Notes under the pieces: generated by a model | What the model was told of the DNA's origin: nothing | Database searches by the model: none | The model's input: the letters and a program-made list of their open reading frames with translations, nothing else | Program-made: the position numbers and the translations under genes | In this document: positions 5,972 through 55,057 of the stretch, piece after piece | Layout: each line of letters begins with the position of its first letter | Position numbering within the stretch: position 1 is the stretch's first letter | Sequence record: OR062945.1 | Strand: one strand, 5' to 3' | Length of the DNA stretch: 64,000 nucleotides | Source of the DNA: Escherichia phage 308Ecol101PP

Positions 5972-6000
5972 GTTTACATCCTCAATAGATGTGTTAAGAT
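5972..6000 (+). promoter_or_regulatory. candidate early promoter (GTTTAC ... TAAGAT)
   Basis: -35-like GTTTAC and -10-like TAAGAT with 17-nt spacing. Confidence 0.35.
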
Positions 6001-6028
6001 TAAACCATCTACTATAGAGGAAAATAAA

Positions 6029-7099: not shown

Positions 7100-7128
7100 T
7101 GTACAACGATAGGAAGACGTGTTATTAT
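7100..7128 (+). promoter_or_regulatory. candidate early promoter (TGTACA ... TATTAT) inside a 10-bp inverted repeat
   Basis: 17-nt spacing; arms GATAGGAAGA (7108-7117) and TCTTCCTATC (7129-7138) flank the -10. Confidence 0.45.
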
Positions 7129-7159
7129 CTTCCTATCGTCTTAAAATGAGGAAAATATC

Positions 7160-8297: not shown

Positions 8298-8341
8298 TGC
8301 TTTAAGATAGGTCTCTAAATATTATGATATAATAGACCTAT
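8298..8341 (+). promoter_or_regulatory. promoter region upstream of gene 55 (TGCTTTA box; TATAAT at 8328-8333; inverted repeat ATAGGTCT/AGACCTAT)
   Basis: The -10 hexamer sits in the loop of an 8-bp inverted repeat; the MotA-box-like TGCTTTA is too far from this -10 to be its partner. Confidence 0.4.
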
Positions 8342-8362
8342 GAATTGAGCTAAGAGGTACTT

Positions 8363-8920
8363 ATGACTGAACAAAAACCTAAAAATAACTATGTGAATAA
8401 TAAAGAGCTTCTCGCCGCTATAATCGAGTGGAAAAAGGAGCTCTTAAATAATAAAGACCCAAACAAAATTATTCGTCAGAATGATACCATCGGTTTAGCA
8501 ATTATGCTTATCGCCGAAGGCCTGTCCAAACGTTTCAACTTTTCAGGATATACCCAGTCTTGGAAGCAGGAGATGATTGCAGATGGGATTGAAGCCTCTA
8601 TTAAGGGACTTCATAATTTCGACGAAACTAAGTACAATAACCCACATGCATACATAACTCGAGCTTGTTTTAATGCTTTTGTCCAACGTATCAAAAAAGA
8701 ACGTAAGGAAGTTGCAAAGAAATATAGTTACTTCGTTCATAATGTCTACGACAGTCATGACGATGATATGGTAGCGTTGGTAGATGAAACGTTTATTCAA
8801 GACATCTACGATAAAATGACGCATTATGAAGAATCCGCTTATAAAGCTCCTGGGGCTGAAAAGAAGGAAGTTGTTAGCGATTCGCCTAGTTTGGATTTTT
8901 TATATGAGGATGACAATTGA
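8363..8920 (+). CDS. 55: late-transcription sigma factor gp55
   Basis: 185 aa, same length as T4 gp55; matches T4 gp55 from memory. Confidence 0.9.
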
Positions 8921-27470: not shown

Positions 27471-28913
27471 GTGGTAGAAATTATTTTGTCTCATCTAGTA
27501 TATGACCAGGCTTATTTTTCTAAGGTCTGGCCTTATATGGATTCTGAGTATTTTGAGCGTGGACCGGCAAAAAATGTCTTTAAAATTATAAAGAGCCACG
27601 TTAACGAATATAATGCAATGCCATCTATCAATGCGTTAAAGGTGGCTTTAGATAACAGTTCTTTAACTGAAGCCGAATATAAAGGAACTTCAGACCTAAT
27701 TGAAAAATTGGCTGATACTCCTGAAGACCATGAATGGTTGGTTAAAGAAACTGAGAAATATGTCCAGCAAAAAGCGATGTATAATGCTACGTCCAAAATC
27801 ATTGAGATTCAGTCTAATGCTGAATTACCTCCAGAACAACGTAACAAGAAAATGCCTGATGTAGGAGCTATTCCTGATATTATGCGTCAAGCACTTTCAA
27901 TTTCGTTTGATAGTTATGTTGGGCATGACTGGATGGAAGACTATGAAGCACGCTGGCTTTCTTATCTAAACAAAGCACGTAAGGTCCCGTTCAAATTAAA
28001 CATTCTGAATAAAATCACTAAAGGTGGTGCTGAAACCGGTACACTGAATGTTTTAATGGCTGGTGTTAACGTTGGTAAATCTTTAGGCCTTTGTTCACTT
28101 GCTGCAGATTATCTTCAAACAGGTCATAACGTTCTTTATATTTCTATGGAAATGGCTGAAGAAGTTTGCGCTAAGCGTATAGATGCAAACATGCTTGACG
28201 TATCACTTGATGATATTGATGATGGTAACGTATCTTATGCTGAATATAAAGCCAAGATGGAAAAATGGCGTTCAAAATCCACATTAGGACGTTTAGTAGT
28301 TAAACAGTATCCTACTGGCGGAGCTAATGCTAATACATTCCGTGCATTGCTTAATGAATTGAAACTCAAGAAGAACTTTGTGCCATCTGTAATCATGGTT
28401 GATTACTTAGGTATTTGTGGGTCTTGTCGTATCAGAGTTTACACTGAAAATAGTTACACATTAGTTAAAGCTATCGCAGAAGAACTTCGTGCATTAGCAG
28501 TAGAATCTGAAACAGTTCTATGGACTGCAGCTCAAGTAGGACGTGCAGCATGGGATGCTTCGGATATGAACATGAGCGATATTGCAGAATCAGCAGGTTT
28601 ACCAGCAACGGCAGATTTCATGTTGGCCGTAATTGAAACCGAAGAACTTGCACAAGCCGAACAACAACTTATCAAACAAATCAAATCACGATACGGCGAT
28701 AAGAATAAGTGGAATAAATTCCTGATGGGTGTACGTAAAGGCAACCAGAAATGGATTGAGATTGAGCAAGAAGGCATGAACACATCTAACACAGTAAATG
28801 AAAACGCAGGTGCTCAGATGCGTCAGGCAGAGGTGAATCGTACGGAACGCGTAGGTAAAGCCAAAGCAACACGTGCTGACCTAGATAGCTTAGCCAATGA
28901 GTTAAAATTTTAA
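27471..28913 (+). CDS. 41: replicative DNA helicase gp41 (DnaB-like)
   Basis: 480 aa, GTG start with AGGAG upstream, Walker A GVNVGKS; matches T4 gp41 from memory. Confidence 0.9.
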   Translation: MVEIILSHLVYDQAYFSKVWPYMDSEYFERGPAKNVFKIIKSHVNEYNAMPSINALKVALDNSSLTEAEYKGTSDLIEKLADTPEDHEWLVKETEKYVQQKAMYNATSKIIEIQSNAELPPEQRNKKMPDVGAIPDIMRQALSISFDSYVGHDWMEDYEARWLSYLNKARKVPFKLNILNKITKGGAETGTLNVLMAGVNVGKSLGLCSLAADYLQTGHNVLYISMEMAEEVCAKRIDANMLDVSLDDIDDGNVSYAEYKAKMEKWRSKSTLGRLVVKQYPTGGANANTFRALLNELKLKKNFVPSVIMVDYLGICGSCRIRVYTENSYTLVKAIAEELRALAVESETVLWTAAQVGRAAWDASDMNMSDIAESAGLPATADFMLAVIETEELAQAEQQLIKQIKSRYGDKNKWNKFLMGVRKGNQKWIEIEQEGMNTSNTVNENAGAQMRQAEVNRTERVGKAKATRADLDSLANELKF

Positions 28914-28919
28914 TAAAAA

Positions 28920-28938
28920 GGAGACTTCGGTCTCCTTT
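28920..28938 (+). terminator. hairpin with UUCG tetraloop after gene 41
   Basis: GGAGAC-TTCG-GTCTCC followed by TTTCGGGG. Confidence 0.45.
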
Positions 28939-28942
28939 CGGG

Positions 28943-28972
28943 GTTTACATCTTCCTCTAGGCATGATACGAT
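28943..28972 (+). promoter_or_regulatory. candidate early promoter (GTTTAC ... TACGAT)
   Basis: 18-nt spacing. Confidence 0.4.
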
Positions 28973-29001
28973 GTACTTACACCAACCAAGAGGAAAACAT
29001 T

Positions 29002-29376
29002 ATGAATATGTCTCAAGCAATTTTTACTGCAATCACCGAAAACACAACTGTTGAAGTAGTTTCTCCACTGGCAACCTACGTTATTCTTGCTCCTAAAACT
29101 ATTGTATCTCGTATGGAAAACATGGGCAAACGTATCGTACAAATTGTTGGAGCCGGAAATCAAAAACTTGATTATCTGCGAACCATCAAAGCTTATGAAC
29201 ATTTCCAACTCGAAAAAGGTTCTCCTATCCAGGTAGAACTCGTAAATGGTGATATCGTTCGAGCAATGTTCCATCATTTCTATGCATTGAATGACCCATC
29301 TAAAGCAGTTCGTTTAATTGCATACGACGCAAACCAAACCGAAATCAACGCAGATGTATCTAAATTACGTTTTTAA
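29002..29376 (+). CDS. hypothetical protein
   Basis: Track ORF 28963..29376 starts in the promoter; ATG 29002 has AGAGGAAAA upstream. Confidence 0.45.
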   Translation: MNMSQAIFTAITENTTVEVVSPLATYVILAPKTIVSRMENMGKRIVQIVGAGNQKLDYLRTIKAYEHFQLEKGSPIQVELVNGDIVRAMFHHFYALNDPSKAVRLIAYDANQTEINADVSKLRF

Positions 29377-29405
29377 GTTTACTTCTCCAGTAGTTGTGTT
29401 ATTAT
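29377..29405 (+). promoter_or_regulatory. early promoter (GTTTAC, 17 nt, TATTAT) inside a 12-bp inverted repeat
   Basis: Arms CTCCAGTAGTTG (29385-29396) and CAACTACTGGAG (29414-29425); the downstream arm contains the Shine-Dalgarno sequence of the next gene. Confidence 0.5.
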
Positions 29406-29431
29406 AGACCTATCAACTACTGGAGAACAAA

Positions 29432-29749
29432 ATGAAAACCATCGATTGTAAAGCAGAATTTAAGATTTTTTATCACGGTTCAAGTAGTTCAGCTAACATC
29501 GAAAACATGCTTTGTCCTCCTGAGGAAACAGGAGTTCTGTCTGAAACCGGACGTAAGAAAAACTTGGATCGTGTATTCTTTACTGAAGATATCGGTTTAG
29601 CAAAGATTTATGCAGGACGAGCAGCACGCTCTTATGGAGGTGAACCACGTCTCTATCGAGTAATTTCTCCGGTAGACGTAGTTCAAATGAATGATACTAA
29701 AGGTGCTACAGTTTATCACGCTGAATGGGCATTTTGTGAGGAAATATGA
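29432..29749 (+). CDS. hypothetical protein
   Basis: 105-aa ORF. Confidence 0.45.
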   Translation: MKTIDCKAEFKIFYHGSSSSANIENMLCPPEETGVLSETGRKKNLDRVFFTEDIGLAKIYAGRAARSYGGEPRLYRVISPVDVVQMNDTKGATVYHAEWAFCEEI

Positions 29750-29937
29750 GCAAATTAACTAAAGTTACTTTTATAGGTTGGTTTAAAAGCGGTGAGATGT
29801 TCACTAAAGATATCATGTTATCAGGTGATCGCGAAGAAATCGAGTGGGTTACGGTACAACTTGCTGAAGTGAACAACGCATTAGTTAAAGCATTTGTTAA
29901 TGACGAGAAAGTTTTTGAAGCTGATTTCAGAGGATAA
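29746..29937 (+). CDS. dmd: Dmd-like antitoxin (inhibitor of host RnlA/LsoA RNase toxins)
   Basis: 63 aa with pattern FIGWFKSGEMFTK...LAEVNNALVKAF, which resembles T4 Dmd as I remember it; sits between 41 and 61. Confidence 0.65.
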   Translation: MSKLTKVTFIGWFKSGEMFTKDIMLSGDREEIEWVTVQLAEVNNALVKAFVNDEKVFEADFRG

Positions 29938-29938
29938 T

Positions 29939-30151
29939 ATGTATTCAACTGTGTTTAAACCATCAACATACGAATTTGCATCAACTACACAATGGAAAGC
30001 TCTTATTCTGGAAGGATGGGAACTAATGATGGACTGTGAAGCATCTGAAAAGTTTCCGCACGGCAAAGTGGACTTCGTTAAATTTGCTGTACGTCCGACT
30101 AAACGACAGATTCGTCAAGAAAAACGCAAATTTCGCAAAAGTTTAAAATAA
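29939..30151 (+). CDS. small protein with C-terminal RPTKRQIRQEKRKFRK tail
   Basis: Track ORF 29894..30151; ATG 29939 follows the dmd stop; third member of the RPTKRQ-tail family. Confidence 0.4.
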   Translation: MYSTVFKPSTYEFASTTQWKALILEGWELMMDCEASEKFPHGKVDFVKFAVRPTKRQIRQEKRKFRKSLK

Positions 30152-30153
30152 CT

Positions 30154-30183
30154 GTTTACAAGCACCACATACTGTGTTACTAT
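30154..30183 (+). promoter_or_regulatory. candidate early promoter (GTTTAC ... TACTAT)
   Basis: 18-nt spacing. Confidence 0.4.
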
Positions 30184-30211
30184 CTTTTTATCAACTACAG
30201 AGGAAATTAAA

Positions 30212-30580
30212 ATGAAAAAATTAATCGCTTTAGCAATGGTATTTGGATTAACCGGATGTGGTGCCCATGGCTTTATCCCTAATAACGTTGGCCAATTGAT
30301 TTACAATCCGAATGTTAAACAATATGAACAACCTAAAGTTGAAGTGGAAGACCCGGTTACTGTAGGTAATCGAATGATTCAAGCTGATGCCCATGCTCAA
30401 CGTTATCGTGACTCTGATACTGTAGCTGTGTCAAAGGAACAGCGCGTTAAAGAACATTGCTTACAGGCTACTGAAATCGCATTCATTCGCTATGTTGAAA
30501 CAACCGGTAAAGAGCCTACCCAGAAACAAATCGCGAATAACTACGTCCAGTGTATTGAACGTTTAAACAAATTTAATTAA
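30212..30580 (+). CDS. putative lipoprotein
   Basis: Signal peptide with lipobox LTGC (MKKLIALAMVFGLTGC). Confidence 0.55.
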   Translation: MKKLIALAMVFGLTGCGAHGFIPNNVGQLIYNPNVKQYEQPKVEVEDPVTVGNRMIQADAHAQRYRDSDTVAVSKEQRVKEHCLQATEIAFIRYVETTGKEPTQKQIANNYVQCIERLNKFN

Positions 30581-30641
30581 TTGGTTTACGCCAAAGTTAA
30601 AACAAGATGCTATAAACATAACAAATCAAGAGGAAATTAAC

Positions 30642-30890
30642 ATGGAATTATTCGTGGCTAGTTCAGTAGCAGTTTTAATCGCAGGTATTGGTTCAATCAT
30701 CATTTACATGTTGCCTTGGGTAATCGCACTTATTCGTGGCACAAAAAGCACAACAGCAATCTTCTTTGTATCTTTACTCTTTAACTGGACGATGATTGGT
30801 TGGATTGGAACTTTAATTTGGTCTATTGTTGCCGAAAAGAAATCTGCTCAGCAGCCTCAACAAGTAATTATTATTCGCGAAAAAGAATAA
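30642..30890 (+). CDS. hypothetical inner-membrane protein
   Basis: 82 aa with two hydrophobic helices. Confidence 0.5.
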   Translation: MELFVASSVAVLIAGIGSIIIYMLPWVIALIRGTKSTTAIFFVSLLFNWTMIGWIGTLIWSIVAEKKSAQQPQQVIIIREKE

Positions 30891-30894
30891 ACTT

Positions 30895-30924
30895 GTTTAC
30901 ATTATAGATGGACTATAGTATAGT
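30895..30924 (+). promoter_or_regulatory. candidate early promoter (GTTTAC ... TATAGT) with palindromic -10 region
   Basis: 18-nt spacing; GGACTATAGTATAGTAGTCC. Confidence 0.4.
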
Positions 30925-30953
30925 AGTCCTATCAAATCAACTAAGGAGTTAAA

Positions 30954-31247
30954 ATGAAAAAGTTATCATTGGCAGCAATCTTACTCGCAGTATCATGTGC
31001 ACCAGCTCCAGTTACGGCAGGTTATGATAAAGACCTCTGTGAGTGGTCAATGACTGCAAATCAAGAAGATGTTGAACAACAAATCTTCTCTGATATCATG
31101 AACATCACTAAACGAGACCGTCCTAATATGGTTAATAAAGTTGTTGAACAACTTAAGTCCGGTGGTATCATGCAGTACAATTATGTTTTGTATTGTGACC
31201 CTAATTTCGATAACAAAGATATCGTAACCGAAATCACAGGTGAATAA
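30954..31247 (+). CDS. sp: Spackle-like periplasmic protein (superinfection exclusion)
   Basis: 97 aa with signal peptide MKKLSLAAILLAVSCAPAP; T4 Sp is also 97 aa and encoded near dmd and 61. Confidence 0.6.
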   Translation: MKKLSLAAILLAVSCAPAPVTAGYDKDLCEWSMTANQEDVEQQIFSDIMNITKRDRPNMVNKVVEQLKSGGIMQYNYVLYCDPNFDNKDIVTEITGE

Positions 31248-31248
31248 T

Positions 31249-31899
31249 ATGATTTATTACATGCACAAAAACGCGCCATTTAAATATGGTAAATTTCCTA
31301 ATGCACAATGTTATAATATAACGCCGAATGAAAATAATAACGGTTATCATATTGGTGTAATTTTTGTAATTGTTAAAGATAACGAAATCGTTGCCTGGGC
31401 TGATTTTAAAGGTACAACGTATGATGTTAATCCGGTGCCTTTCACATATTACAATATAATGGATTTGGCATATGATTATAATTGGTTTAATCATGACGCG
31501 TTGGCTCATATTGAAGGTGTAGGATTTGACATCTCTTATTCTAGCTATTCATTATGTCCTATGAGCCGAGCTCACGGTAAAGATGCATCATATCTTTCAT
31601 TTCGGAAACGTGTAAACTTCAAACGTAGTACAGAGTATGTCGGTGGACTCTTTGTTAAAGATAATAAAATAACCCGTATTAGTTATCCTTTAAGTGTAGG
31701 TCAAAAAGATGTTGATGTTGATTTAGACTTAACTGAAAATAACATTAATCATATTGCTTCTGTATATTTTGATATCGATGAAAAAATTGTAGTGTGTGGA
31801 TACGAATTACCACCTGAAGAAAAGGCTGAAGCAATTGAAGTCGAATTAGAAATTTCTGTTGATGACCAAATATTTAATGCATTTATGAATCGAGGTTAA
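31249..31899 (+). CDS. hypothetical protein
   Basis: 216 aa; noticeably AT-rich codon usage. Confidence 0.45.
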   Translation: MIYYMHKNAPFKYGKFPNAQCYNITPNENNNGYHIGVIFVIVKDNEIVAWADFKGTTYDVNPVPFTYYNIMDLAYDYNWFNHDALAHIEGVGFDISYSSYSLCPMSRAHGKDASYLSFRKRVNFKRSTEYVGGLFVKDNKITRISYPLSVGQKDVDVDLDLTENNINHIASVYFDIDEKIVVCGYELPPEEKAEAIEVELEISVDDQIFNAFMNRG

Positions 31900-31900
31900 A

Positions 31901-32098
31901 ATGACTACTGCAATTTGCACTGGTTCTAAAATTAGTGTTTTTACAAGTTTTGAAGATTATGAAGTTGTTTCAAAACACCAATACCATATTAGCGTAAAAG
32001 CTAATGATGGTGTAATTTGGAATATTCCACAGTATGAAGGCACTACATATGAAGTCACAGATATAAATGGTGACAAAGCAATCTTTGTAATTGATTAA
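31901..32098 (+). CDS. hypothetical protein
   Basis: 65-aa ORF. Confidence 0.4.
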   Translation: MTTAICTGSKISVFTSFEDYEVVSKHQYHISVKANDGVIWNIPQYEGTTYEVTDINGDKAIFVID

Positions 32099-32117
32099 AT
32101 ATACTCAGGAGGTACCT

Positions 32118-32585
32118 ATGGGTATTATTAACACTGCAATAGATTCTGTTTACGCATATAAGTTTATTCGACTAATGCAAAAACCTTTTACCGAATGGAA
32201 AGCATACGAAGCCAAAATCATCGATGAACGTGGAAGTGTTCTTAAACGTCCTTCTACTCCCGAAGAGAAAGCGGCGTATACACCTTTTCATGCTTCAGTT
32301 CGTTCAATGAAGCGAATGATGAGCACTGTTCCAGGTCTTAATGGAATGGCCTCAATGATGTCTGCCTGGAGTGCTGTAGCTTCACGCTATAACATTACGG
32401 AAGAACAGCAGAAAGAAATATTTAAAGAACTCCCTTTATTTGAGGATATGGTTGCTGGTGATTCAGGTGGCAGCCCTCAAGCTATTGCATCAGGAACAAC
32501 TACAGGTGCAGTCGTAAATAAAGGTCCAGAACAAATTCCTTCCAAGAAAAGAAAGCGAATTAAAGTAAATATTAATAAGTTGTGA
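32118..32585 (+). CDS. hypothetical protein
   Basis: Track ORF 32091..32585; ATG 32118 has AGGAGGTACCT upstream. Confidence 0.45.
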   Translation: MGIINTAIDSVYAYKFIRLMQKPFTEWKAYEAKIIDERGSVLKRPSTPEEKAAYTPFHASVRSMKRMMSTVPGLNGMASMMSAWSAVASRYNITEEQQKEIFKELPLFEDMVAGDSGGSPQAIASGTTTGAVVNKGPEQIPSKKRKRIKVNINKL

Positions 32586-32624
32586 TATGATGGCCTTATT
32601 AATTTAAGGCCTCTGGAGAATACT

Positions 32625-33647
32625 ATGGCTGAATGGATAGATAATGAATTTGCTTATCGTGCGTTTTCTCACCTACCTCGTTTTAGACAAATCAATAATT
32701 CAAGCACATTTAAATTAACATTTCGTTGTCCAGTTTGTGGCGACTCCCAGACAGATGCAATGAAAGCTCGTGGATGGTATTATGGCGGTACTCCTGGTAA
32801 TGTACATTGCTATAATTGTCAATACCACAATACAATTTCCGGATACTTAAAAGAATATGACGAAGAGCTTTATCGCGAATATCTAATGGAAGTTCGTAAA
32901 GAAAAAGCTAGAATGGAACCAAAGATTGAAAAGGTTCCTGAAGCTAAGCCGGAGCCAGAGAAAAAGACTATAAATTCTTTACCGTCTTGTTCTCGTCTGG
33001 ACAAGCTGCCTGAAGAGCATCCTATTGTGAAATATGTTAAGTCTCGATGCATTCCTAAAGAATCATGGAACAGATTATGGTTCACATTAGAATGGCCTAA
33101 ATTGGTCAACAAGATTCAACCTGGTACGTATAAGAAAGAGATTCCCGAACCACGTTTAGTGATTCCTATTTTTAATAAAGATGGGAAGGCCGAGTCATTC
33201 CAAGGGCGTGCACTTCGTAAAGATGCTCCTCAGAAATATATCACTATTAAAGCGTTTGAGTCTGCAACAAAAATTTATGGTGTTGAACGTGTTAAGGAAG
33301 GAGACGTCTGGGTAATGGAAGGCCCTATTGATAGTTTATTCATACCCAATGCAATCGCTATTACAGGCGGCTCAATAGATTTAGATGTGGTACCATTTAA
33401 AGAACGTCGGGTATGGGTAATGGATAATGAACCTAGGCATCCGGATACTATAGCTCGCATGAAGCGATTAGTTGATGCAGGCGAACGTGTCATGTTCTGG
33501 GACCGAGCTCCATGGAGATCAAAGGATGTGAATGATATGGTAATGAAAGAAAATGCAACACCACAAGAAATTTTAGAATATATGAAACAGAATATTTCAA
33601 GTGGGTTGCATGCTAAAATGAGATTATCTCGTTATTCGAAGATTTAA
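32625..33647 (+). CDS. 61: DNA primase gp61
   Basis: 340 aa, N-terminal zinc ribbon CPVCGDS...CYNC, TOPRIM core; matches T4 gp61 from memory. Confidence 0.9.
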   Translation: MAEWIDNEFAYRAFSHLPRFRQINNSSTFKLTFRCPVCGDSQTDAMKARGWYYGGTPGNVHCYNCQYHNTISGYLKEYDEELYREYLMEVRKEKARMEPKIEKVPEAKPEPEKKTINSLPSCSRLDKLPEEHPIVKYVKSRCIPKESWNRLWFTLEWPKLVNKIQPGTYKKEIPEPRLVIPIFNKDGKAESFQGRALRKDAPQKYITIKAFESATKIYGVERVKEGDVWVMEGPIDSLFIPNAIAITGGSIDLDVVPFKERRVWVMDNEPRHPDTIARMKRLVDAGERVMFWDRAPWRSKDVNDMVMKENATPQEILEYMKQNISSGLHAKMRLSRYSKI

Positions 33648-33841
33648 ACAAGCCCTATAATAGCAAAGGCCAAATCAACTACAGTATCCAATGGAACAGA
33701 AGGAACTATAATACCATTAGCAACTAACAATGGTGCAATCCCGAAGTTCCATGAAATAATGCCACCTACAACTATTGCGGCGATAGCAGTTTTCTTTTTA
33801 TTGCCTTTAATAGCGTTTATTAACGATGGAAGTTTAAACAT
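33644..33841 (-). CDS. hypothetical small membrane protein encoded antisense to the surrounding early genes
   Basis: 65 aa, hydrophobic; AGGAGATATT Shine-Dalgarno on the minus strand; near-consensus late-promoter-like AATAAATAA upstream. Confidence 0.4.
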   Translation of the reverse strand: MFKLPSLINAIKGNKKKTAIAAIVVGGIISWNFGIAPLLVANGIIVPSVPLDTVVDLAFAIIGLV

Positions 33842-33929
33842 AATATCTCCTTAGTTACCTATTATTTATTACGCTTTATAAAATTAATGTTAGAATTAAC
33901 TCTCTTATACTGAATTGAAAGGAAAAATA

Positions 33930-34451
33930 ATGGCACACTTTAACGAATGTTCACAACTTATTTCTGGTGTTGATAAAGCAGAAGAAGCTTATTTTAATGC
34001 TCTGATTCACGAAGATAAAGACCCACTTCAGGTAATGCTTGATATGCAGAAATCTTTACAGGTTCGTTTGGCAAATGACAAGCCTGAACATAACAAACAT
34101 CCTGATGAATTGGCCACTGCAGGCGACGTTGTTGATTGGCTGCGTAATCAGAAAGATTATATTGATGATGAATTCCGTGAACTGCTGACTTCACTTGGTG
34201 GTATGAGCAATGGTGAAAAAGCCGCCAGCAGTGTATGGAAGCCGTGGAAAGCACAACATGCTGAATATCGTAATCGTCGTATCGATGAACTGTCTCCTGA
34301 AGACCAGCTTGAAATTAAATTTGAGATGATTGATATTCTGCACTTCGTTCTGAACATGTTCCAAGGTCTGGGTCTTTCTGCTGAAGAAATCTTTAAACTG
34401 TATTATCTGAAGAATGCTGAAAACTTTGCTCGTCAAGACCGAGGTTATTAA
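33930..34451 (+). CDS. 56: dCTP/dUTP pyrophosphatase gp56 (MazG-like)
   Basis: 173 aa starting MAHFNE with acidic MazG-type helices; track start 33915 is TTG. Confidence 0.75.
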   Translation: MAHFNECSQLISGVDKAEEAYFNALIHEDKDPLQVMLDMQKSLQVRLANDKPEHNKHPDELATAGDVVDWLRNQKDYIDDEFRELLTSLGGMSNGEKAASSVWKPWKAQHAEYRNRRIDELSPEDQLEIKFEMIDILHFVLNMFQGLGLSAEEIFKLYYLKNAENFARQDRGY

Positions 34452-34624
34452 TGGCTCGTTTAAATAAACGTCAGCTTAAGAAAGCTCATAAGAAACGTAT
34501 TGACCAACTATTTAAAAATGATAACAGTGAGCTTATTTGTAAGCTCCTGTCTAATCAGCTTCAGCATGTTAGTCAATTATCAGACCATCTACATATGGTT
34601 GATTGGGTTGCAAATGAAACTTGA
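34451..34624 (+). CDS. hypothetical small basic protein (57 aa, not in ORF track)
   Basis: Hand-translated; N-terminus MARLNKRQLKKAHKKR resembles the RPTKRQ tail motif. Confidence 0.3.
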   Translation: MARLNKRQLKKAHKKRIDQLFKNDNSELICKLLSNQLQHVSQLSDHLHMVDWVANET

Positions 34625-34838
34625 TTTTTATGCATGGCAAAAAGCCGGGAGACCGGCTAATAAAGCATTCGGCTCTGATGGATATAATACTAGACTCCAC
34701 TGGAAATTTAATACTCCAGATGATTATTCTCCGGTAATAATTAACGGTGATGTTGTTATATTAGCTAAATTCGGATATTTTATTGTCCCGAAGAAATTCA
34801 TTATAAATACACCTGTAATTAAACAACAAAGGAGTTAA
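34614..34838 (+). CDS. hypothetical protein
   Basis: Internal ATG of track ORF 34500..34838. Confidence 0.3.
   Translation: MKLDFYAWQKAGRPANKAFGSDGYNTRLHWKFNTPDDYSPVIINGDVVILAKFGYFIVPKKFIINTPVIKQQRS
34802..34809 (+). promoter_or_regulatory. T4-type late promoter (TATAAATA) upstream of soc
   Basis: Exact TATAAATA about 31 nt upstream of the soc ATG. Confidence 0.55.
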
Positions 34839-34840
34839 TT

Positions 34841-35077
34841 ATGGGTGGTTATGTAAACATCAAAACCTTTACGCATCCTGCTGGTGAAGGTAAAGAAGTT
34901 AAAGGTATGGAAGTTTCTGTGCCGTTTGAGATTTATTCAAACGAACATCGGATTGCAGATTCTCATTACCAAATCTTTCCATCAGAAAAGGCAGCTTATT
35001 CTACTGTAGTTTCTGATGCAGCTGACTGGAAAACTAAGAACGCTGCAATGTTTACCCCTACACCAGTAAGTGGTTAA
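34841..35077 (+). CDS. soc: small outer capsid protein Soc
   Basis: 78 aa with GYVNIKTF...YQIFPSEKAAYSTV, matching T4 Soc from memory; has its own late promoter. Confidence 0.7.
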   Translation: MGGYVNIKTFTHPAGEGKEVKGMEVSVPFEIYSNEHRIADSHYQIFPSEKAAYSTVVSDAADWKTKNAAMFTPTPVSG

Positions 35078-35086
35078 ATAATTTAA

Positions 35087-35113
35087 GGAATCCTTCGGGG
35101 TTCCTTTTTTTTT
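35087..35113 (+). terminator. rho-independent terminator (UUCG tetraloop) after soc
   Basis: GGAATCC-TTCG-GGGTTCC followed by T9. Confidence 0.7.
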
Positions 35114-35122
35114 GTTTCTACA

Positions 35123-35152
35123 GTTTACAAACACTAAAAACTGTGTTAAGAT
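35123..35152 (+). promoter_or_regulatory. candidate early promoter (GTTTAC ... TAAGAT)
   Basis: 18-nt spacing. Confidence 0.4.
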
Positions 35153-35180
35153 ATTCTTACTTACTCAAGAGGAGAATAAT

Positions 35181-35408
35181 ATGTTAAATCGTTGGATTAA
35201 ACCTAATAACACATTAGGTGCTTTGATTGCTCAAGAAGTTTCGTTGAAATACGGTCTTGGATATTACGATGATGTAGTCGTACACTCATTCATGATGGAT
35301 GGTGAAGACGTCAAATTTAATGCCGAAATCCGTTGGGATGATGGTGGTGTTCGTTTTGTTCGAGGAACAATTAATGCTTACGATACTGAAGAAGTTGTTT
35401 GCTGTTAA
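35181..35408 (+). CDS. hypothetical protein
   Basis: Track ORF 35112..35408; ATG 35181 has GAGGAGAATAAT upstream. Confidence 0.4.
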   Translation: MLNRWIKPNNTLGALIAQEVSLKYGLGYYDDVVVHSFMMDGEDVKFNAEIRWDDGGVRFVRGTINAYDTEEVVCC

Positions 35409-35421
35409 ACCAGGCGAAGGT

Positions 35422-35610
35422 ATGATGCCTATTCCTGATACACACGAAAAAAGTTGGGAATACATTGGTGACGGCATGATGGAAGAAGTTATTCGTCCTA
35501 AGTCTGCTTCAAACTCTTCAAGTTATAATCATTCATACGTATCGTCTTGGCCCGGTGATTCTGGGTCAAGTTATTCTGATTGTGGTTCAAGCTCAGGGAG
35601 CTGCGAATGA
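35422..35610 (+). CDS. hypothetical Ser-rich protein
   Basis: Internal ATG of track ORF 35299..35610 after the previous stop. Confidence 0.35.
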   Translation: MMPIPDTHEKSWEYIGDGMMEEVIRPKSASNSSSYNHSYVSSWPGDSGSSYSDCGSSSGSCE

Positions 35611-35786
35611 ACAAGATAGTTAAATGGTTTAAAAGCTGGGACGATGGTGTCGGTCCAGAAGATTGGCTGGATGTTCTTGAAGAGAATATGGCTAAAGAAT
35701 TCCAGAAACATGAAGAAAAGCTCGTCGAAGATGAAGGCGAACGTATTGTAAAACTTTATATGGGTGAACCATCGAGGAAATTATAA
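35607..35786 (+). CDS. hypothetical protein
   Basis: ATGA overlap; track ORF 35580..35786. Confidence 0.4.
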   Translation: MNKIVKWFKSWDDGVGPEDWLDVLEENMAKEFQKHEEKLVEDEGERIVKLYMGEPSRKL

Positions 35787-36250
35787 TGGATGCTATGCTA
35801 TTTAAAATGTATTTGCTTGAAGCCAAGTCATTTAAACATATACCAGTGGAAGATAAGACTCCACTAGAAATAGCTATTCTAATTAACAAAAGTCTAAATA
35901 ATCCGCAATATATCGTAGAAGAATTCTGCAAATTGCAGATTCCTAAAGGTTACAAAATTCGTGTAGAGCGAGTTGGAGCTATTACTCGTTCTAAAAATTC
36001 TCCGTTTAGTCTTGAAGAAGGCATAAAGGACTTAGGTTATGAATCTACGGAAAATGCCGTTTATGTGAATCCTGAAAAGCGTTTAGACCTGTTTGAAAAG
36101 CGAGACCATAAGTATTTTGCCAAAAAATACTTTATTACATCATTAGCAGATTTAATCCATTTGCAACGAGCTATTTGGAAATTTTTTAAGACAAAAGGTG
36201 TAGCACTAGAAACATTCTCTGAACCGGCTAGTTTTTATCTAGGTGAATAA
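35786..36250 (+). CDS. hypothetical protein
   Basis: 154-aa ORF. Confidence 0.5.
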   Translation: MDAMLFKMYLLEAKSFKHIPVEDKTPLEIAILINKSLNNPQYIVEEFCKLQIPKGYKIRVERVGAITRSKNSPFSLEEGIKDLGYESTENAVYVNPEKRLDLFEKRDHKYFAKKYFITSLADLIHLQRAIWKFFKTKGVALETFSEPASFYLGE

Positions 36251-36431
36251 TATGGACCTTATGAGTATGTTTGACGAGCCTGAAGTTGAGGCTCCTAAAG
36301 TGCATCGTAGTGAACTTATTGATGAACTAGATAGTATTATACAACGACACGGCTTTAGTTTACCTGTTGAAGCCCTGAAAGACCTTGCATCTTATTATGA
36401 CGACCCTCCACCATGGAGTCCTTGGAAATGA
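36243..36431 (+). CDS. hypothetical acidic protein
   Basis: 62-aa ORF. Confidence 0.4.
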   Translation: MNNMDLMSMFDEPEVEAPKVHRSELIDELDSIIQRHGFSLPVEALKDLASYYDDPPPWSPWK

Positions 36432-36592
36432 AAGAGAAATTGAAAGAGAAATTCTTACTAGAAATCAAGGAAAAAGACTTTGAGACATGGTATCGAATGG
36501 TGAAAGGGCTGACATTGCTTTTTAAAGCATCGTTATTCATGTTAGAACAACCTGGTCCTGATGGGCCTTTAGTAGGAAAGCTTAAAAAGTAG
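36428..36592 (+). CDS. hypothetical protein (54 aa, not in ORF track)
   Basis: Hand-translated ATG 36428 (ATGA overlap) to TAG 36590-36592. Confidence 0.3.
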   Translation: MKEKLKEKFLLEIKEKDFETWYRMVKGLTLLFKASLFMLEQPGPDGPLVGKLKK

Positions 36593-36620
36593 TTTACATT
36601 CCCTCCTCTCGTGTTATGAT
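36592..36620 (+). promoter_or_regulatory. early promoter (GTTTAC, 17 nt, TATGAT) upstream of modA
   Basis: Hexamers read directly. Confidence 0.45.
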
Positions 36621-36647
36621 AGGCTTATCTTTAAATGGAGGTCTATC

Positions 36648-37229
36648 ATGACATGTCAATCTGAACTTCAAGAACGTGAATACCTAACAAATCTGATTGA
36701 TAGCAAATTCACCCGCCAAGAACAAAACATTCTCTGGGCTTGCACCGATTCTAAGGAAGACCCAGATTTCCACTATGAATTAGACCATCTTGTTCGTAAG
36801 CATATGACTTCTACAGTACCAGTAGAACTCTACCGTGGTGTAACTCCAGAAGAAGTAGAACGTCTTTCCCTTCTTTCTGTGGGATGCCATTGGTCTCCTG
36901 GACGAGTAACATCGTTCACAACTGATTTCAGTACAGCTCGTCAATTCTCCGGGAGATGGGAATATCAGACGTACACTATTCTTAGTCTCAGGAATGCTCC
37001 GTTCATTTTTGATTACTACCAAAACATGGTTAACATTGTACTCGCCGGAAAGAACCCTAAGCATGTTATGGAAGAAACTCGTATCGATGTCCTAGATATG
37101 ATTGAATCTGAGCAAGAGTACATGGTCTCAGGTATCTCTAGATTTGAGATTGTGGAAATTGAAGACTTAGAATATGACCCTTTATCTCGGTTATACAAAA
37201 TCATTCATTTGAAAATGTTGAATTTTTAG
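36648..37229 (+). CDS. modA: ADP-ribosyltransferase ModA-like
   Basis: 193 aa with ART R-S-ExE pattern (LYRGV ... SFTTDFSTA ... ESEQEYM); T4 modA and modB are adjacent as here. Confidence 0.7.
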   Translation: MTCQSELQEREYLTNLIDSKFTRQEQNILWACTDSKEDPDFHYELDHLVRKHMTSTVPVELYRGVTPEEVERLSLLSVGCHWSPGRVTSFTTDFSTARQFSGRWEYQTYTILSLRNAPFIFDYYQNMVNIVLAGKNPKHVMEETRIDVLDMIESEQEYMVSGISRFEIVEIEDLEYDPLSRLYKIIHLKMLNF

Positions 37230-37258
37230 TGTACAAACTCTTCCGATGATGATACTAT
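37229..37258 (+). promoter_or_regulatory. candidate early promoter (GTGTAC ... TACTAT)
   Basis: 18-nt spacing. Confidence 0.4.
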
Positions 37259-37286
37259 ACCTTTATCAACCATAGGAGAAACCTAA

Positions 37287-37895
37287 ATGTTTATGCCGTA
37301 TAACGAGTGTGAAATTGAAGAAATGGTTCGTCGTGCTCAAAACCCCGAATATCAAGATGTATTGCAGTACGAAATTGATAGTCAATTCAGCGATAATGAA
37401 CAAAGCGTCCTTTGGCAGTGTATGGAAAACAAGCCAGACTGTATTCAACAGGAGTTAAGTTCAATCGTTCGTAGAAATTGGACGTCTTCTGTTCCTGAGA
37501 CAATGTATCGTGGAATCTCTAAGAAAACTATGGCCACACTCGATGATAAAGGCATTGGTAGTATTATTAAATTTGACAGAGTAATGAGCTTCAGCCCAGT
37601 GTTCGGTGTAGCGCGTAACTTTGCTTCGTATAATTTTTACGGAACATTTAATATGTTCTGCATCAAAGATGCACCATTTGCTTTCAACTTCCGTGAACAT
37701 ATGCTTAATATGATTCTGGCTGCACCATCTTGTGAGTTCAATGGAGCTTTCCCTGAAGCGACAAGACGGTCTAATGCTAGACTTATATCTGACGAATGTG
37801 AATTTATGCTCCCTATAGGGACTACACTGCGTGTAGATTCTATTATTCAAGATGGACGTTATACAATCTGGAATCTGTCTATTGTCAGTTACTGA
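37287..37895 (+). CDS. modB: ADP-ribosyltransferase ModB-like
   Basis: 202 aa with ART pattern (MYRGIS ... SFSPVFGVA ... SDECEFM); paralogous to the upstream gene. Confidence 0.7.
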   Translation: MFMPYNECEIEEMVRRAQNPEYQDVLQYEIDSQFSDNEQSVLWQCMENKPDCIQQELSSIVRRNWTSSVPETMYRGISKKTMATLDDKGIGSIIKFDRVMSFSPVFGVARNFASYNFYGTFNMFCIKDAPFAFNFREHMLNMILAAPSCEFNGAFPEATRRSNARLISDECEFMLPIGTTLRVDSIIQDGRYTIWNLSIVSY

Positions 37896-37969
37896 CTGAA
37901 TTGGAATAACCGGATGGAACTCAGAACCATTATAACACATAAAAAATTAAAGCATTTTATGAAAAAAGA

Positions 37970-37998
37970 GTGTACACTACCTGAGGGCATGATATTAT
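37970..37998 (+). promoter_or_regulatory. candidate early promoter (GTGTAC, 17 nt, TATTAT)
   Basis: Hexamers read directly. Confidence 0.4.
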
Positions 37999-38048
37999 AA
38001 GCTTATCAGCTAAACGACCTTAACGTCCGTAAGACAGAGGAAAATATT

Positions 38049-38795
38049 ATGTTATCAAATAATAAAATTAACAAAATTAATCGTCGTCTTGACCACACCA
38101 GAGCTTCTGCGAAGAGACGCTCTAAGGATTTTAACTTAGACTTTAATTACCTTAAAAACATTCTTGATCAAAAGGTCTGTGCTTACTCAGGTGAATCTTT
38201 TAATAACTCTGTTGAAGGTGAGAAATTATCCTTAGAACGTTTTAATAATGATATAGGCTACATTAAAGGTAATGTTATCCCGGTTAAGAAAAAATATAAC
38301 ACGGCTCGTTCTGATTTAACATTAGAAGAACTTATTGAGAAACGCGATGCCATTGCAAGACGTATCGCTAATCCTTCGGCCCGTAAAGTAGAGAAACTTA
38401 ATCTCGACGAGAAGAAATGGGCCCAAATTAAAAAGGTTTATGGTACTATTTTAAAAATCCGAGCAAAACGTGAAAATCGTGTTAAGCATATGGCGAACAT
38501 GATGAAAAATCAACCTTTATCTAACGAATCTAAACTTAGAATTGTTGCTTTGAAAGCACGCATTAATGGCTCACATCAAGCAGAAGGCCATGAACTTACT
38601 AAACTCAACGTTCTTCTTAAAGGCTCTGACTGGAAAACTAAAACTAAATTAACTGACGCTGAATCGCTTTTCGATACATATGATAAAGTTATCCAAGGTC
38701 TGCAACGTTTTGAAAAGATTGGTTTCATTGGTAAATTAAAATTGAAACGTGGCTTACCACTTAGCGCATCATTATTCCAACTGATTAAAGGTTAA
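38049..38795 (+). CDS. srd: Srd-like protein (by position between modB and dda)
   Basis: 248 aa basic protein; assignment rests on synteny only. Confidence 0.4.
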   Translation: MLSNNKINKINRRLDHTRASAKRRSKDFNLDFNYLKNILDQKVCAYSGESFNNSVEGEKLSLERFNNDIGYIKGNVIPVKKKYNTARSDLTLEELIEKRDAIARRIANPSARKVEKLNLDEKKWAQIKKVYGTILKIRAKRENRVKHMANMMKNQPLSNESKLRIVALKARINGSHQAEGHELTKLNVLLKGSDWKTKTKLTDAESLFDTYDKVIQGLQRFEKIGFIGKLKLKRGLPLSASLFQLIKG

Positions 38796-38797
38796 TT

Positions 38798-39109
38798 ATG
38801 GTTTATGTATATGCAATAGTTTATCGAGATATGGAAGGATTTACTGTCCCGGTTCCACTTGATGAGCATCGTCCTGCAGTATTTTTTAGAAAGGATATTG
38901 CAGATAAAGTTTTCGATACTTTGAAAACACAGTATAAAACAGATTTAAAAATGGGAGTTCTAAGAATGGTTGAAACTCCGCGTAAGTTCTGGTTTAATAA
39001 GCTTGAAATGAAACACGTTAAACTAGATGCGGAGACGCAAAGATTGTATCAACGAATCCTGGACACAGGCCGTATTGTTAGTATTCCAATTGCAGGGACT
39101 TTACGATGA
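38798..39109 (+). CDS. hypothetical protein (dda.1 locus)
   Basis: 103-aa ORF. Confidence 0.45.
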   Translation: MVYVYAIVYRDMEGFTVPVPLDEHRPAVFFRKDIADKVFDTLKTQYKTDLKMGVLRMVETPRKFWFNKLEMKHVKLDAETQRLYQRILDTGRIVSIPIAGTLR

Positions 39110-40419
39110 CATTTGATGATTTGACTGAAGGCCAGAAAAACGCCTTCAACGTTGTTATGGAAGCTATTAAAGAAAAGAAACATCATGTAACTATTAATGG
39201 ACCTGCTGGTACAGGTAAAACAACCCTTACTAGATTCATCGTTGAAGCCCTTATTTCTTCTGGAGAATCAGGTATTATTTTAGCAGCCCCTACACATGCT
39301 GCTAAAAAGGTTCTAAGCAAACTTGCTGGTCAAGAAGCATCGACTATTCATAGCATTCTTAAAATCAACCCAACTACATACGAAGAAAACGTATTGTTTG
39401 AACAGAAAAAGGTTCCAGACTTAGCCTTGTGTCGTGTACTGTTATTTGATGAAGCGTCAATGTGCGACCGTTCTCTGTTTAAAATAATGTTAGCTAGTAT
39501 CCCTAAATGGTGTACAGTAATTGGAATCGGCGACCGATGCCAGATTCGTCCGGTAGACCCAGGCGAATCAACTGCGTATCTAAGTCCTTTCTTCACTCAC
39601 AAAGACTTCGTGCAATGCAACCTTACAGAAGTTAAACGTAGCAATGCACCAATTATTGATGTTGCGACTGATATTCGTAATGGCAAATGGATTTACGATA
39701 AAGTAGTTGATGGGCACGGCGTTCATGGATATACAGACCTTAAATCGTATATGATGAACTATTTTAACGTCGTTAAAACTCCTGAAGACCTTTTCGAAAA
39801 TCGAATGATGGCATTCACAAATAAGTCGGTGGACAAGTTAAATTCAATTATTCGCCGAAAACTTCTTGAAACAGAAAAACCATTTATTAAAGACGAAGTC
39901 ATTGTTCTACAAGAGCCATTTACTAAGACATATAAGCTAGACGGTAAAAATATGACCGAAATGCTTTTCAATAATGGGCAATTCGTTCGTATTCGAGATG
40001 CTGTAGAAACGTCTACATTCGTTAAAGCACGTGGTGTTTCAGGCGAATATATGATACGATACTGGAATCTTACAGTAGAAACATATGGTGATGATGAAGA
40101 ATACGTCCGAGAGGATATAAAGGTTATTTCTTCTGAAGAAGAGCTTTATAAATTCAATTTGTTTTTGGCTAAGACCGCAGAAACATACAAATTCTGGAAT
40201 AAAGGTGGTAAAGCTCCATGGAGCGAATTCTGGGATGCTAAACGTATGTTCACTAAGGTGAAGGCACTACCAGTATCAACCTTCCATAAGGCCCAGGGTA
40301 TGTCTGTTGACACAGCCTTTGTTTATACACCGTGTATCCATTATGCCGATTCAGAATTAGCTAAACAGTTATTGTATGTCGGCACAACTCGTGGTCGGTT
40401 TGACGTCCATTTTATTTGA
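39106..40419 (+). CDS. dda: DNA helicase Dda (SF1)
   Basis: 437 aa, Walker A GPAGTGKTT, Walker B LLFDEASM. Confidence 0.85.
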   Translation: MTFDDLTEGQKNAFNVVMEAIKEKKHHVTINGPAGTGKTTLTRFIVEALISSGESGIILAAPTHAAKKVLSKLAGQEASTIHSILKINPTTYEENVLFEQKKVPDLALCRVLLFDEASMCDRSLFKIMLASIPKWCTVIGIGDRCQIRPVDPGESTAYLSPFFTHKDFVQCNLTEVKRSNAPIIDVATDIRNGKWIYDKVVDGHGVHGYTDLKSYMMNYFNVVKTPEDLFENRMMAFTNKSVDKLNSIIRRKLLETEKPFIKDEVIVLQEPFTKTYKLDGKNMTEMLFNNGQFVRIRDAVETSTFVKARGVSGEYMIRYWNLTVETYGDDEEYVREDIKVISSEEELYKFNLFLAKTAETYKFWNKGGKAPWSEFWDAKRMFTKVKALPVSTFHKAQGMSVDTAFVYTPCIHYADSELAKQLLYVGTTRGRFDVHFI

Positions 40420-40428
40420 GAGAAAATT

Positions 40429-41106: not shown

Positions 41107-41111
41107 AATCA

Positions 41112-41141
41112 GTTTACAACCAAGGACGGTTGGAGTATAAT
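41112..41141 (+). promoter_or_regulatory. early promoter (GTTTAC, 18 nt, TATAAT)
   Basis: Hexamers read directly. Confidence 0.5.
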
Positions 41142-41171
41142 CTTTCTATCTTAACCAAACGGGAAACAATT

Positions 41172-41666: not shown

Positions 41667-41668
41667 TG

Positions 41669-41698: not shown

Positions 41699-41726
41699 GA
41701 ATTCAATTTAAACAAAGAGAGAAATT

Positions 41727-43270: not shown

Positions 43271-43299
43271 TGTACAACAACTATGGCCTATGATACTAT
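43271..43299 (+). promoter_or_regulatory. candidate early promoter (TGTACA, 17 nt, TACTAT)
   Basis: Followed by the TAGACCTATCAA motif. Confidence 0.4.
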
Positions 43300-43327
43300 A
43301 GACCTATCAAAACAAGAGGAGAATATT

Positions 43328-51907: not shown

Positions 51908-51937
51908 GTTTACAACTAAGTAGGACTATGATATAGT
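51908..51937 (+). promoter_or_regulatory. candidate early promoter (GTTTAC ... TATAGT) with palindromic -10 region
   Basis: 18-nt spacing; TAGGACTATGATATAGTAGTCCTA. Confidence 0.45.
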
Positions 51938-51963
51938 AGTCCTATCTAAAAGAGGATAACATC

Positions 51964-52419: not shown

Positions 52420-52449
52420 GTTTACAACAAGGTAGGATTATGGTATAGT
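52420..52449 (+). promoter_or_regulatory. candidate early promoter (GTTTAC ... TATAGT)
   Basis: 18-nt spacing; GTAGGA/TCCTAC palindrome. Confidence 0.45.
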
Positions 52450-52477
52450 AGTCCTACTGAAACATGAGGAACACAAA

Positions 52478-54989: not shown

Positions 54990-55018
54990 GTTTACATGTG
55001 CTTCAAACATGATATTAT
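54990..55018 (+). promoter_or_regulatory. early promoter (GTTTAC, 17 nt, TATTAT) upstream of motA
   Basis: Followed by the TAGACCTATCAA motif. Confidence 0.5.
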
Positions 55019-55057
55019 AGACCTATCAAATCAAAACAACCAAATTGGAGAAATAAA

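Follow-up and report, generated by a model that had tools for sequence, protein, structure and literature searches.

A recurrent sequence at the -10 box and start site of phage promoters is probably the core of RB69-like early promoters and one arm of a stem-loop

Introduction

Why should one extended sequence follow the -10 hexamer at seven separate places in a phage genome? The question is raised by positions 8,298 to 8,362 of a 64,000-nucleotide stretch of Escherichia phage 308Ecol101PP (sequence record OR062945.1; one strand, 5' to 3'), hereafter the window. In a preliminary description, made by a model from the letters of the window, a partly palindromic motif of 17-20 nt was noted at 8325-8344 and at six further sites. 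It was suggested to be a conserved initial transcribed sequence, a binding site for a phage regulator, or an RNA processing signal. Our analysis indicates that the motif is very probably the core of early promoters of the RB69-like (Mosigvirus) kind of T4-type phage, and that its half-palindrome is one arm of a stem-loop straddling the -10 box. Such promoters would be read by host sigma-70 RNA polymerase immediately after infection. Two separate constraints, a start block and the stem-loop, would keep the motif alike across promoters.

Results

The motif marks a sub-family of early promoters

Mosigvirus records (the RB69 group of T4-type phages) share 99% identity with the window over 4 kb around the first site. 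The window is collinear with RB69 at 94-97% identity, running from RB69 49907 down to 1, then from 167560 to ~153150. Hence, the + strand of the window is the strand transcribed for early and middle genes. All seven sites were recovered on this strand, within 2-4 nt of the positions first given, with -10 hexamers starting at 8328, 29400, 30919, 43294, 51932, 52444 and 55013. We name the sites by these hexamer starts.

It had been stated beforehand that a motif no more frequent than expected of AT-rich background should be dismissed. TAGWCCTAT occurs six times in the window; 0.81 copies are expected from 100 dinucleotide-preserving shuffles, none of which reached six. Allowing up to 3 mismatches, the 17-mer was also found six times (0.66 expected in shuffled sequence). 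Enrichment of the 13-mer pattern TATAGTAGTCCTA with up to 2 mismatches was marginal (5 copies, 1.67 expected; 2 of the 100 shuffles reached 5). This pattern has three exact copies, each one a promoter site. Each promoter copy lies directly 3' of a TAnnnT hexamer. Similarly, RB69 has 31 early-strand copies of AG[AT]CCTA, 19 of which directly follow a -10 hexamer and continue with T. The remainder are scattered, without -10 context. Scanning IMG/VR with the 17-mer returned 8 loci only, 6 or 7 with the same promoter architecture, which is too few for covariation analysis.

The motif has three parts. These are a -10 hexamer TAYWRT (-12 to -7), a discriminator AG(A/T)CCT (-6 to -1) and a start region ATCAA, the A being +1. 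The consensus TATA(A/T)TAGACC, as initially proposed, is thus better written TAYWRT-AG(A/T)CCT-ATCAA. An exact TATAAT-AGACC is present at 8328 only, and the remaining AGACC sites have TATTAT or TACTAT as the hexamer. The 3' end deviates at 8328 (ATGAA) and at 52444 (ACTGA).

We located promoters using a weight matrix built from -47 to -7 only; hence, the downstream part of the motif contributed no information. In the window, all 21 sites identified by the matrix are on the + strand. For RB69 the numbers were 54 on the early strand and 1 on the other. These 21 include every motif site but 8328, and each of the six corresponds in position to an early promoter in the RB69 list of Nolan et al. 2006 (Table 1), with 93-100% identity over 120 nt. 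These six have a -35 element of the GTTTAC(A/T) type (TTTACA, TTTACT or TGTACA) and a spacer of 16-17 bp; the 8328 site has none. The RB69 sequence logo includes an A-rich upstream element, with A at each position from -43 to -39 in 33-44 of 57 promoters. Upstream of the window motif sites we found AAAA, TAAAA or a T-run plus CACAAAAC. An extended -10 element (TGn) with T at -15 and G at -14 is present at six of the seven sites, 30919 having TAG instead. Across the 21 window promoters, G occupies -14 in 17. At every one of the seven sites, a purine-rich Shine-Dalgarno sequence and ATG follow 20-33 nt after +1. A scan with a generic sigma-70 consensus was uninformative (54 matches, 51.8 expected).

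The motif therefore does lie at the -10/+1 region of real promoter-type sites, as matrix hits and RB69 orthology both indicate. It is found at 6 of 21 definable early-type promoters of the window and at one middle-type promoter. We conclude that the motif is the signature of a promoter sub-family and not of the whole promoter class.

A conserved block surrounds the predicted start site

The register of transcription can be anchored in T4. Base 40180 of T4, the start of the middle promoter P55, is the A after TATAAT-AGATCT and thus the seventh base after the hexamer. Pe133295 of the T4 record has the same register, being the seventh base after an early-promoter hexamer placed at 133307-133302. 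By analogy with these two starts, +1 of the motif would be the A of CCT-ATC at all seven sites (Table 1), where the second hyphen of the consensus above marks the boundary. ATCAA would then begin at +1, in agreement with the suggestion of a conserved initial transcribed sequence.

Conservation around this position is pronounced, even though the bases lie outside the detection matrix. Among the 21 window promoters we counted C at -3 in 15, T at -1 in 18, A at +1 in 19, T at +2 in 15 and C at +3 in 14. The RB69 start block is similar, and the information content of C at -3, 1.28 bits, is close to that of the -35 positions. The corresponding blocks are CT-ATCAACTAC in T4 and CCC-ATCGAAAC in RB49. 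Hence, a start block YYT-ATC(A/G)AA recurs in early promoters of the window, RB69, T4 and RB49, which represent three genera (Mosigvirus, Tequatrovirus and Krischvirus). The motif had been thought to extend beyond the T4 early-promoter consensus. This is so for the AG(A/T)CC discriminator, which is typical of RB69-type phages and which, among T4 early promoters, was found at a single one upstream of denV, whose hexamer starts at T4 65390. It is not so for the start block, since CT-ATCAAC is also found in T4 and RB49. A preference for C at -3 to -1 in RB69, RB49 and 44RR was reported by Nolan et al. 2006 (Virol J 3:30), and Hinton 2010 describes T4 early promoters with consensus regions beyond the standard elements.

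What might the start block do? Three pyrimidines, one purine, two pyrimidines and an A-rich stretch would leave the start window with only one purine. Going by what is generally known of how start sites are chosen, this purine would fix initiation with ATP at one position, and the leader would be A-rich and unstructured. We know of no requirement for such a block by sigma-70 RNA polymerase. Published work on NAD-capping and on DksA and the discriminator reports no matching motif.

The discriminator is often one arm of a stem-loop around the -10 box

The motif was initially described as partly palindromic. This is borne out; the discriminator often forms the 3' arm of a stem-loop, pairing with a 5' arm GG(T/A)CT in the spacer between -35 and -10, which places the -10 box in the loop. 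To quantify pairing, we matched the 5' arm region of each promoter against the 3' arm region of the same promoter and of every other one, using 5000 permutations. The arm and register tests covered the window, RB69, T4 and RB49. In all four genomes, complementarity to the own arm exceeded pairing across promoters (0 of 5000 permutations to the contrary). With the 3' arm reversed as a control, the signal was at or near background, RB69 being marginal (167 of 5000). Stems of at least 6 bp peak in one register, with pairs extending outward from -16:-7 around an 8-nt loop. The promoters in this register number 12 for RB69, 5 each for T4 and RB49, and 4 for the window.

A stem-loop is present at five of the seven motif sites, and also at promoters 7123, 42714 and 52705. 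Overall, fold energies range from -11 to -22.5 kcal/mol, with z down to -5.6. For the stems formed by spacer and discriminator (51932, 52444, 30919, 7123 and 52705) the values are -11 to -16.5 kcal/mol and z = -2.6 to -4.4. At 52705, which is outside the motif family, the stem is TGAGAGCA...TGCTCTCA. The 43294 stem is degraded (GGCCTAT/ATAGACC, one mismatch, no significant fold); the RB69 counterpart, Pe:6863, has a perfect GGTCTAT/ATAGACC. No stem-loop, and no fold above background, was found at 55013. In a terminator scan of 28000-44000, no + strand promoter stem was reported; the sole match at promoter stems was a - strand hairpin, 43304-43285, across the 43294 repeat.

Arms change and pairing is kept. 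GGACTA/TAGTCC alternates with GGGCTA/TAGCCC, and a G.U intermediate was seen. GAGAGC/GCTCTC in the window and RB69 corresponds to GGGACC/GGTCCC in T4. Within T4, AAGACTA/TAGTCTT alternates with AAGATTA/TAATCTT and, in RB49, GGGGGTA/TACCCCC with GGGAGTA/TACTCCC. Where strong stems contain a single mismatch, G.T outnumbers A.C by 12 to 2, the ratio for cross-pairs being 190:168; some promoters are paralogous, so that these counts are not fully independent. The bias for G.T over A.C points to pairing of the sense strand, that is, of RNA.

RNA made from an upstream promoter would hold both arms, and a transcript started at the promoter itself would be without the 5' arm. By analogy with related phages, discussed below, the stems may attenuate read-through in this phage.

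Two further repeats were observed. A perfect 12-bp inverted repeat, ACGATAGGAAGA/TCTTCCTATCGT at 7106-7139, surrounds the -10 box TATTAT of early promoter 7123 (-16.5 kcal/mol, z = -4.4). In the RB69 orthologue of this repeat, an extra G creates a bulge. A separate sub-family, seen at window 52682-52717 and T4 ~7215-7180, has the form AACTCTTG-xxxxxx-AGAGTATAAT-xxxxxx, where the variable hexamers stay complementary. In this sub-family, the window and RB69 have the arms GAGAGC/GCTCTC, further RB69 copies have CGAGAGA/TCTCTCG and GGAGC/GCTCC, and T4 has GGGACC/GGTCCC.

The gene 55 site corresponds to T4 middle promoter P55

The 8328 site, the only one of the seven without a -35 hexamer, precedes an open reading frame (ORF), 8363-8920, encoding the late sigma factor gp55. 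The T4 counterpart is TGATATAAT-AGATCT-A and, over window 8298-8341, conservation between this phage and T4 is near base for base. The block TGCTTTAAGATAGGTCT...TGATATAATAGA(C/T)CTATGAATTGAGCTAAGAGG upstream of gene 55 is near-identical in both. T4 has a middle promoter here, P55, with its start at 40180 (Marshall, Sharma & Hinton 1999, as listed in Hinton 2010, Table 1). Judged by this alignment, the 8328 site is the orthologue of P55. It differs from the other motif sites in that P55 is, in T4, a MotA-dependent middle promoter and not an early one, and in having no -35 hexamer. Nolan et al. 2006 include no promoter upstream of gene 55 in their early or middle list.

By definition, a MotA box has the sequence (a/t)(a/t)(a/t)TGCTT(t/c)A and its centre near -30, with 11-13 bp between it and the -10 hexamer downstream. 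We considered a canonical MotA-dependent middle promoter at 8328 and rejected it because of spacing; TGCTTTA, a perfect match, is separated from the downstream TATAAT by 23 bp. This TGCTTTA box is also the exact point (query position 29) at which homology with T4-type phages sets in. The -30 region is instead occupied by ATAGGTCT, the 5' arm of the inverted repeat. Despite the spacing, the T4 orthologue is listed as middle promoter P55. The inverted repeat has a 19-nt loop and folds weakly (-9.5 kcal/mol, z = -1.8). T4 retains the pairing with one G.U (ATAGGTCT/AGATCTAT).

Some stems could mask Shine-Dalgarno sequences

A second type of stem occurs at promoters 29400 and 42714 and, in weaker form, at 28967 and 5995 (29383-29427, 42697-42741, 28950-28995 and 5979-6021, respectively). 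Here, a pyrimidine-rich 5' arm (TTCTCC...) comes right after the -35 element, and the Shine-Dalgarno sequence is within a 3' arm located at +3 to +17. The spacer is an anti-Shine-Dalgarno sequence (TTCTCCTC...). These stems have 11-14 bp, fold energies of -21 to -22.5 kcal/mol and z-scores near -5. At 29400, the 3' arm holds the Shine-Dalgarno sequence GGAG of an ORF starting at 29432, whose product is of unknown function (phrog_2110). Because the 5' arm is upstream of the start site and the 3' arm is at the Shine-Dalgarno sequence, the hairpin is possible in read-through RNA only. Hairpins that mask ribosome-binding sites in long transcripts, with the promoter inside the hairpin, are known for T4 e, soc, 49 and I-TevI (Uzan & Miller 2010). 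The stems described here are alike in forming in read-through RNA only and in enclosing the promoter. They differ in that the T4 hairpins enclose late promoters and those of the window early ones, and in being confined to a subset.

Predicted accessibility of the Shine-Dalgarno sequence in the window is 0.46 in read-through RNA and 0.67 in primary transcripts. However, the own upstream sequence masks the ribosome-binding site no better than that of a foreign promoter in the window (1271 of 5000) or RB69 (3449 of 5000); T4 alone shows an effect (112 of 5000). We thus reject genome-wide masking. It holds only for the subset with stems of 10-14 bp.

Features at the motif sites and nearby

The elements of each site are collected in Table 1. 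The ORF downstream of 55013 encodes MotA (E = 4.8e-90). motA is a classic immediate-early gene.

Table 1. Promoters, stems and associated elements at the seven motif sites, in window coordinates. Start positions are predicted, with the register taken from T4; names beginning Pe: are RB69 early promoters.
Feature	Position	Strand	Elements	Fold or position	RB69 orthologue
Gene 55 promoter core	8325..8344	+	extended -10 TGaTATAAT 8325-8333; discriminator AGACCT; start A 8340, then TGAA		
Inverted repeat at gene 55 promoter	8307..8314 / 8334-8341	+	ATAGGTCT / AGACCTAT	loop holds -10 box	
MotA-box sequence	8298..8304	+	TGCTTTA	about -42 to -36; one helical turn (~11 bp) upstream of canonical -30 position	
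Early promoter	29378..29427	+	-35 TTTACT 29378-29383; -10 TATTAT 29400-29405; AGACCT; start A 29412		Pe:20537
14-bp stem at 29400	29383-29396 / 29414-29427		TTCTCCAGTAGTTG / CAACTACTGGAGAA	encloses -10 box and start site; -21.1 kcal/mol, z = -5.6	
Spackle (sp) early promoter	30896..30940	+	-35 TTTACA; -10 TATAGT 30919-30924; AGTCCT; start A 30931		Pe:19020 (region 100% identical)
Stem at 30919	30910-30915 / 30924-30929		GGACTA / TAGTCC	-11.1 kcal/mol, z = -2.8	
cef early promoter	43271..43315	+	-35 TGTACA; -10 TACTAT 43294-43299; AGACCT; start A 43306		Pe:6863
Early promoter	51909..51953	+	-35 TTTACA; -10 TATAGT 51932-51937; AGTCCT; start A 51944		Pe:165795
Perfect 8-bp stem at 51932	51921-51928 / 51937-51944		TAGGACTA / TAGTCCTA	8-nt loop tgatatag holds -10 box; -13.2 kcal/mol, z = -2.6	
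ndd.1-like ORF early promoter	52421..52465	+	-35 TTTACA; -10 TATAGT 52444-52449; AGTCCT; start A 52456		Pe:165283
Stem at 52444	52432-52440 / 52449-52457		GTAGGATTA / TAGTCCTAC	one U.G pair; -14.1 kcal/mol, z = -3.4	
motA early promoter	54991..55034	+	T/A-rich upstream element; -35 TTTACA; -10 TATTAT 55013-55018; AGACCT; start A 55025		Pe:162713

An early-promoter-like site was noticed inside the motA coding sequence at 55580-55620 (TTTACT, 17 bp, TAAGAT; matrix score 17). It is without the conserved start block and may be a false positive or an internal promoter. Hairpin-plus-T-run terminators at 35085-35106 and 28942-28962 precede early promoters 35147 and 28967, respectively. Most other window promoters have no such terminator upstream. 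Collinearity with RB69 is lost at 58514-64000. There is no match above 400 nt for 58.5-61.9 kb, 61.9-64.0 kb has 75% identity, and the GC skew reverses within 58514-64000. By synteny, this would be the long tail-fibre/adhesin region, read from the other strand.

Discussion

Can the repeats be accounted for in other ways? Marginal enrichment of the 13-mer pattern with 2 mismatches is what chance matches in AT-rich DNA might give, yet the odds of that explanation are practically nil. The six copies of TAGWCCTAT are not matched by any shuffle, are confined to one strand and all directly follow a -10 hexamer. Exact repeats could also be recent paralogous copies, homogenised by recombination or gene conversion and with no function beyond that of a generic promoter. 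The sub-families are near-identical over ~35 nt, including spacer and leader; T4-type recombination needs short homologies only; promoter stem-loops of this kind have been proposed as exchange sites; and AGACC is kept at 55013, which has no stem. As a full explanation this is unlikely, because the compensatory changes and one sharply preferred register in four genomes indicate selection on pairing. Furthermore, the start block is common to genera with otherwise different promoters, the -35 element being TTGACA in RB49 and GTTTAC in T4 and RB69. Even so, common descent or gene conversion among promoter copies probably contributes to the exact repeats.

Other proposals assign the conservation to a different molecule. 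The RNA leader, 5'-AUCAA(A/C)..., could matter instead of the DNA, as a signal at the 5' end that affects how immediate-early mRNA is stabilised, processed or translated. Positions +1 to +8 are conserved in three genera though outside the detection matrix, and leaders are A-rich and unstructured up to the Shine-Dalgarno sequence. We found no evidence for the RNA processing signal raised in the preliminary description, however, and the leader matches no known target of T4 RNases or RNA-binding proteins (RegB, for one, requires GGAG together with an A-rich tract on its 3' side). Conservation is strongest at -3 to -1, which is not transcribed. A leader signal is quite unlikely on these grounds, and it would be compatible with the promoter explanation, not an alternative to it. 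A protein could be involved if two quasi-palindromic TAGNNCTA boxes (-23 to -16 and -7 to +1) were an operator, bound by a dimeric phage protein that occludes the promoter and causes early shut-off. TAGGACTA...TAGTCCTA is indeed symmetric across the -10 box, and two reviews call the mechanism of early-promoter shut-off unknown. We hold an operator to be most improbable. The arms vary widely while complementarity is kept (GAGAGC/GCTCTC, ATAGGAAGA/TCTTCCTAT, AGGATGAT/ATCATCCT, GGGACC/GGTCCC and the G- and C-runs of RB49), which a single sequence-specific protein would not tolerate and which argues for a structure and against the regulator site envisaged at the outset. In addition, the excess of G.T over A.C mismatches is expected if RNA of the sense strand pairs, and not if a protein recognises duplex DNA. 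An upstream box is missing at the motA promoter (55013), and the same core is present at the middle promoter P55. Presence at P55 likewise counts against the start block YYT-ATC(A/G)AA(A/C) as the cis-target of the abrupt shut-off of T4-type early promoters minutes after infection, with the flanking stem-loops as a separate, RNA-level layer. We rate that idea very unlikely. The most probable interpretation remains an early-promoter core in which the half-palindrome is one arm of a stem-loop.

For annotation, the motif can be relied on to flag immediate-early transcription units of RB69-like phages, among them those headed by the motA, spackle and cef promoters. Models of early promoters should reach about +8, and discriminator bases that form a hairpin arm should not be taken as RNA polymerase contacts. 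Beyond annotation, the importance of the motif is limited.

How does the motif relate to known systems? It shares with the RB69 early promoters (Nolan, Petrov, Bertrand, Krisch & Karam 2006, Virol J 3:30, additional file 3) the GTTTAC-type -35 element, the A-rich upstream element and the TAnnnT -10 box. The RB69 model differs in ending at the start site, so that the ATCAA leader is excluded, and the accessible text of that paper contains no mention of stem-loops or sub-families. Stem-loops are the subject of Arbiol et al. 2010 (Genome Biol Evol 2:140), who described promoter-early stem-loops (PeSLs) in RB49 and phi1. These are mostly between -35 and -10 or overlap the -10 box, and G-T pairs are included. 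Promoter activity was shown, and with one phi1/RB49 stem lacZ expression fell by as much as with the terminator rrnB T1. Two functions were proposed: the stems would attenuate transcription arriving from upstream, and the cassettes would recombine with one another, thereby reshuffling small ORFs. Comeau, Arbiol & Krisch 2014 (Genome Biol Evol 6:1611) added PeSLs in T4/PST and KVP40/nt-1 and suggested them for all T4-like phages.

Like PeSLs, the window promoters are strong early promoters of the sigma-70 type with AT-rich DNA upstream and, in many cases, a stem-loop; a Shine-Dalgarno sequence and a start codon follow at their 3' end. PeSLs recur many times among small ORFs, as the window promoters also seem to do. 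In our re-analysis of RB49, itself a PeSL phage, the own-arm signal and the -16:-7 register were the same as in the window. One difference is that the window arms (GGACTA/TAGTCC) are AT-richer than the G-runs and C-runs of RB49. A candidate cassette is the 87-codon ORF at 51964-52227 (phrog_2390). It is flanked by two near-identical TATAGTAGTCCTA cores, 51932 and 52444, 512 bp apart, and has no T4 homologue. T4 carries ndd.2-ndd.6 at this position, and the example locus of Comeau et al. 2014 is an ndd.4/.5 exchange. Breaks in collinearity between the window and RB69 are few and not at promoters.

Several points count against our interpretation. Start sites in the window are transferred from T4. 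Across all promoters, covariation between fixed columns is weak (z up to 3.4), because stem registers differ between sub-families. AGACC is kept at 55013, 43294 and 8328, where the stem is unconvincing, degraded and weak, respectively; hence, pairing is not the sole reason for its conservation. The stems have no U-tract and are followed by ATCAAAAC-type sequence, which rules out intrinsic (Rho-independent) terminators. PeSLs are described, in the accessible parts of the literature, for RB49/phi1, T4/PST and KVP40/nt-1 and not for Mosigvirus. Finally, attenuation and mini-circle formation were shown in RB49/phi1 only, attenuation for one stem.

We found no explicit account of the Mosigvirus arms or of the shared -16:-7 register in the literature, and these details fall within the known kind. 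The stem-loops at the motif match the PeSL cassette. Promoter-embedded stem-loops of RB49, T4 and KVP40 relatives are thus also present in Mosigvirus, in the same register. As prediction of the promoters dates from 2006 and accounts of the stem-loop architecture from 2010 and 2014, we conclude that the motif is real, functional and already known.

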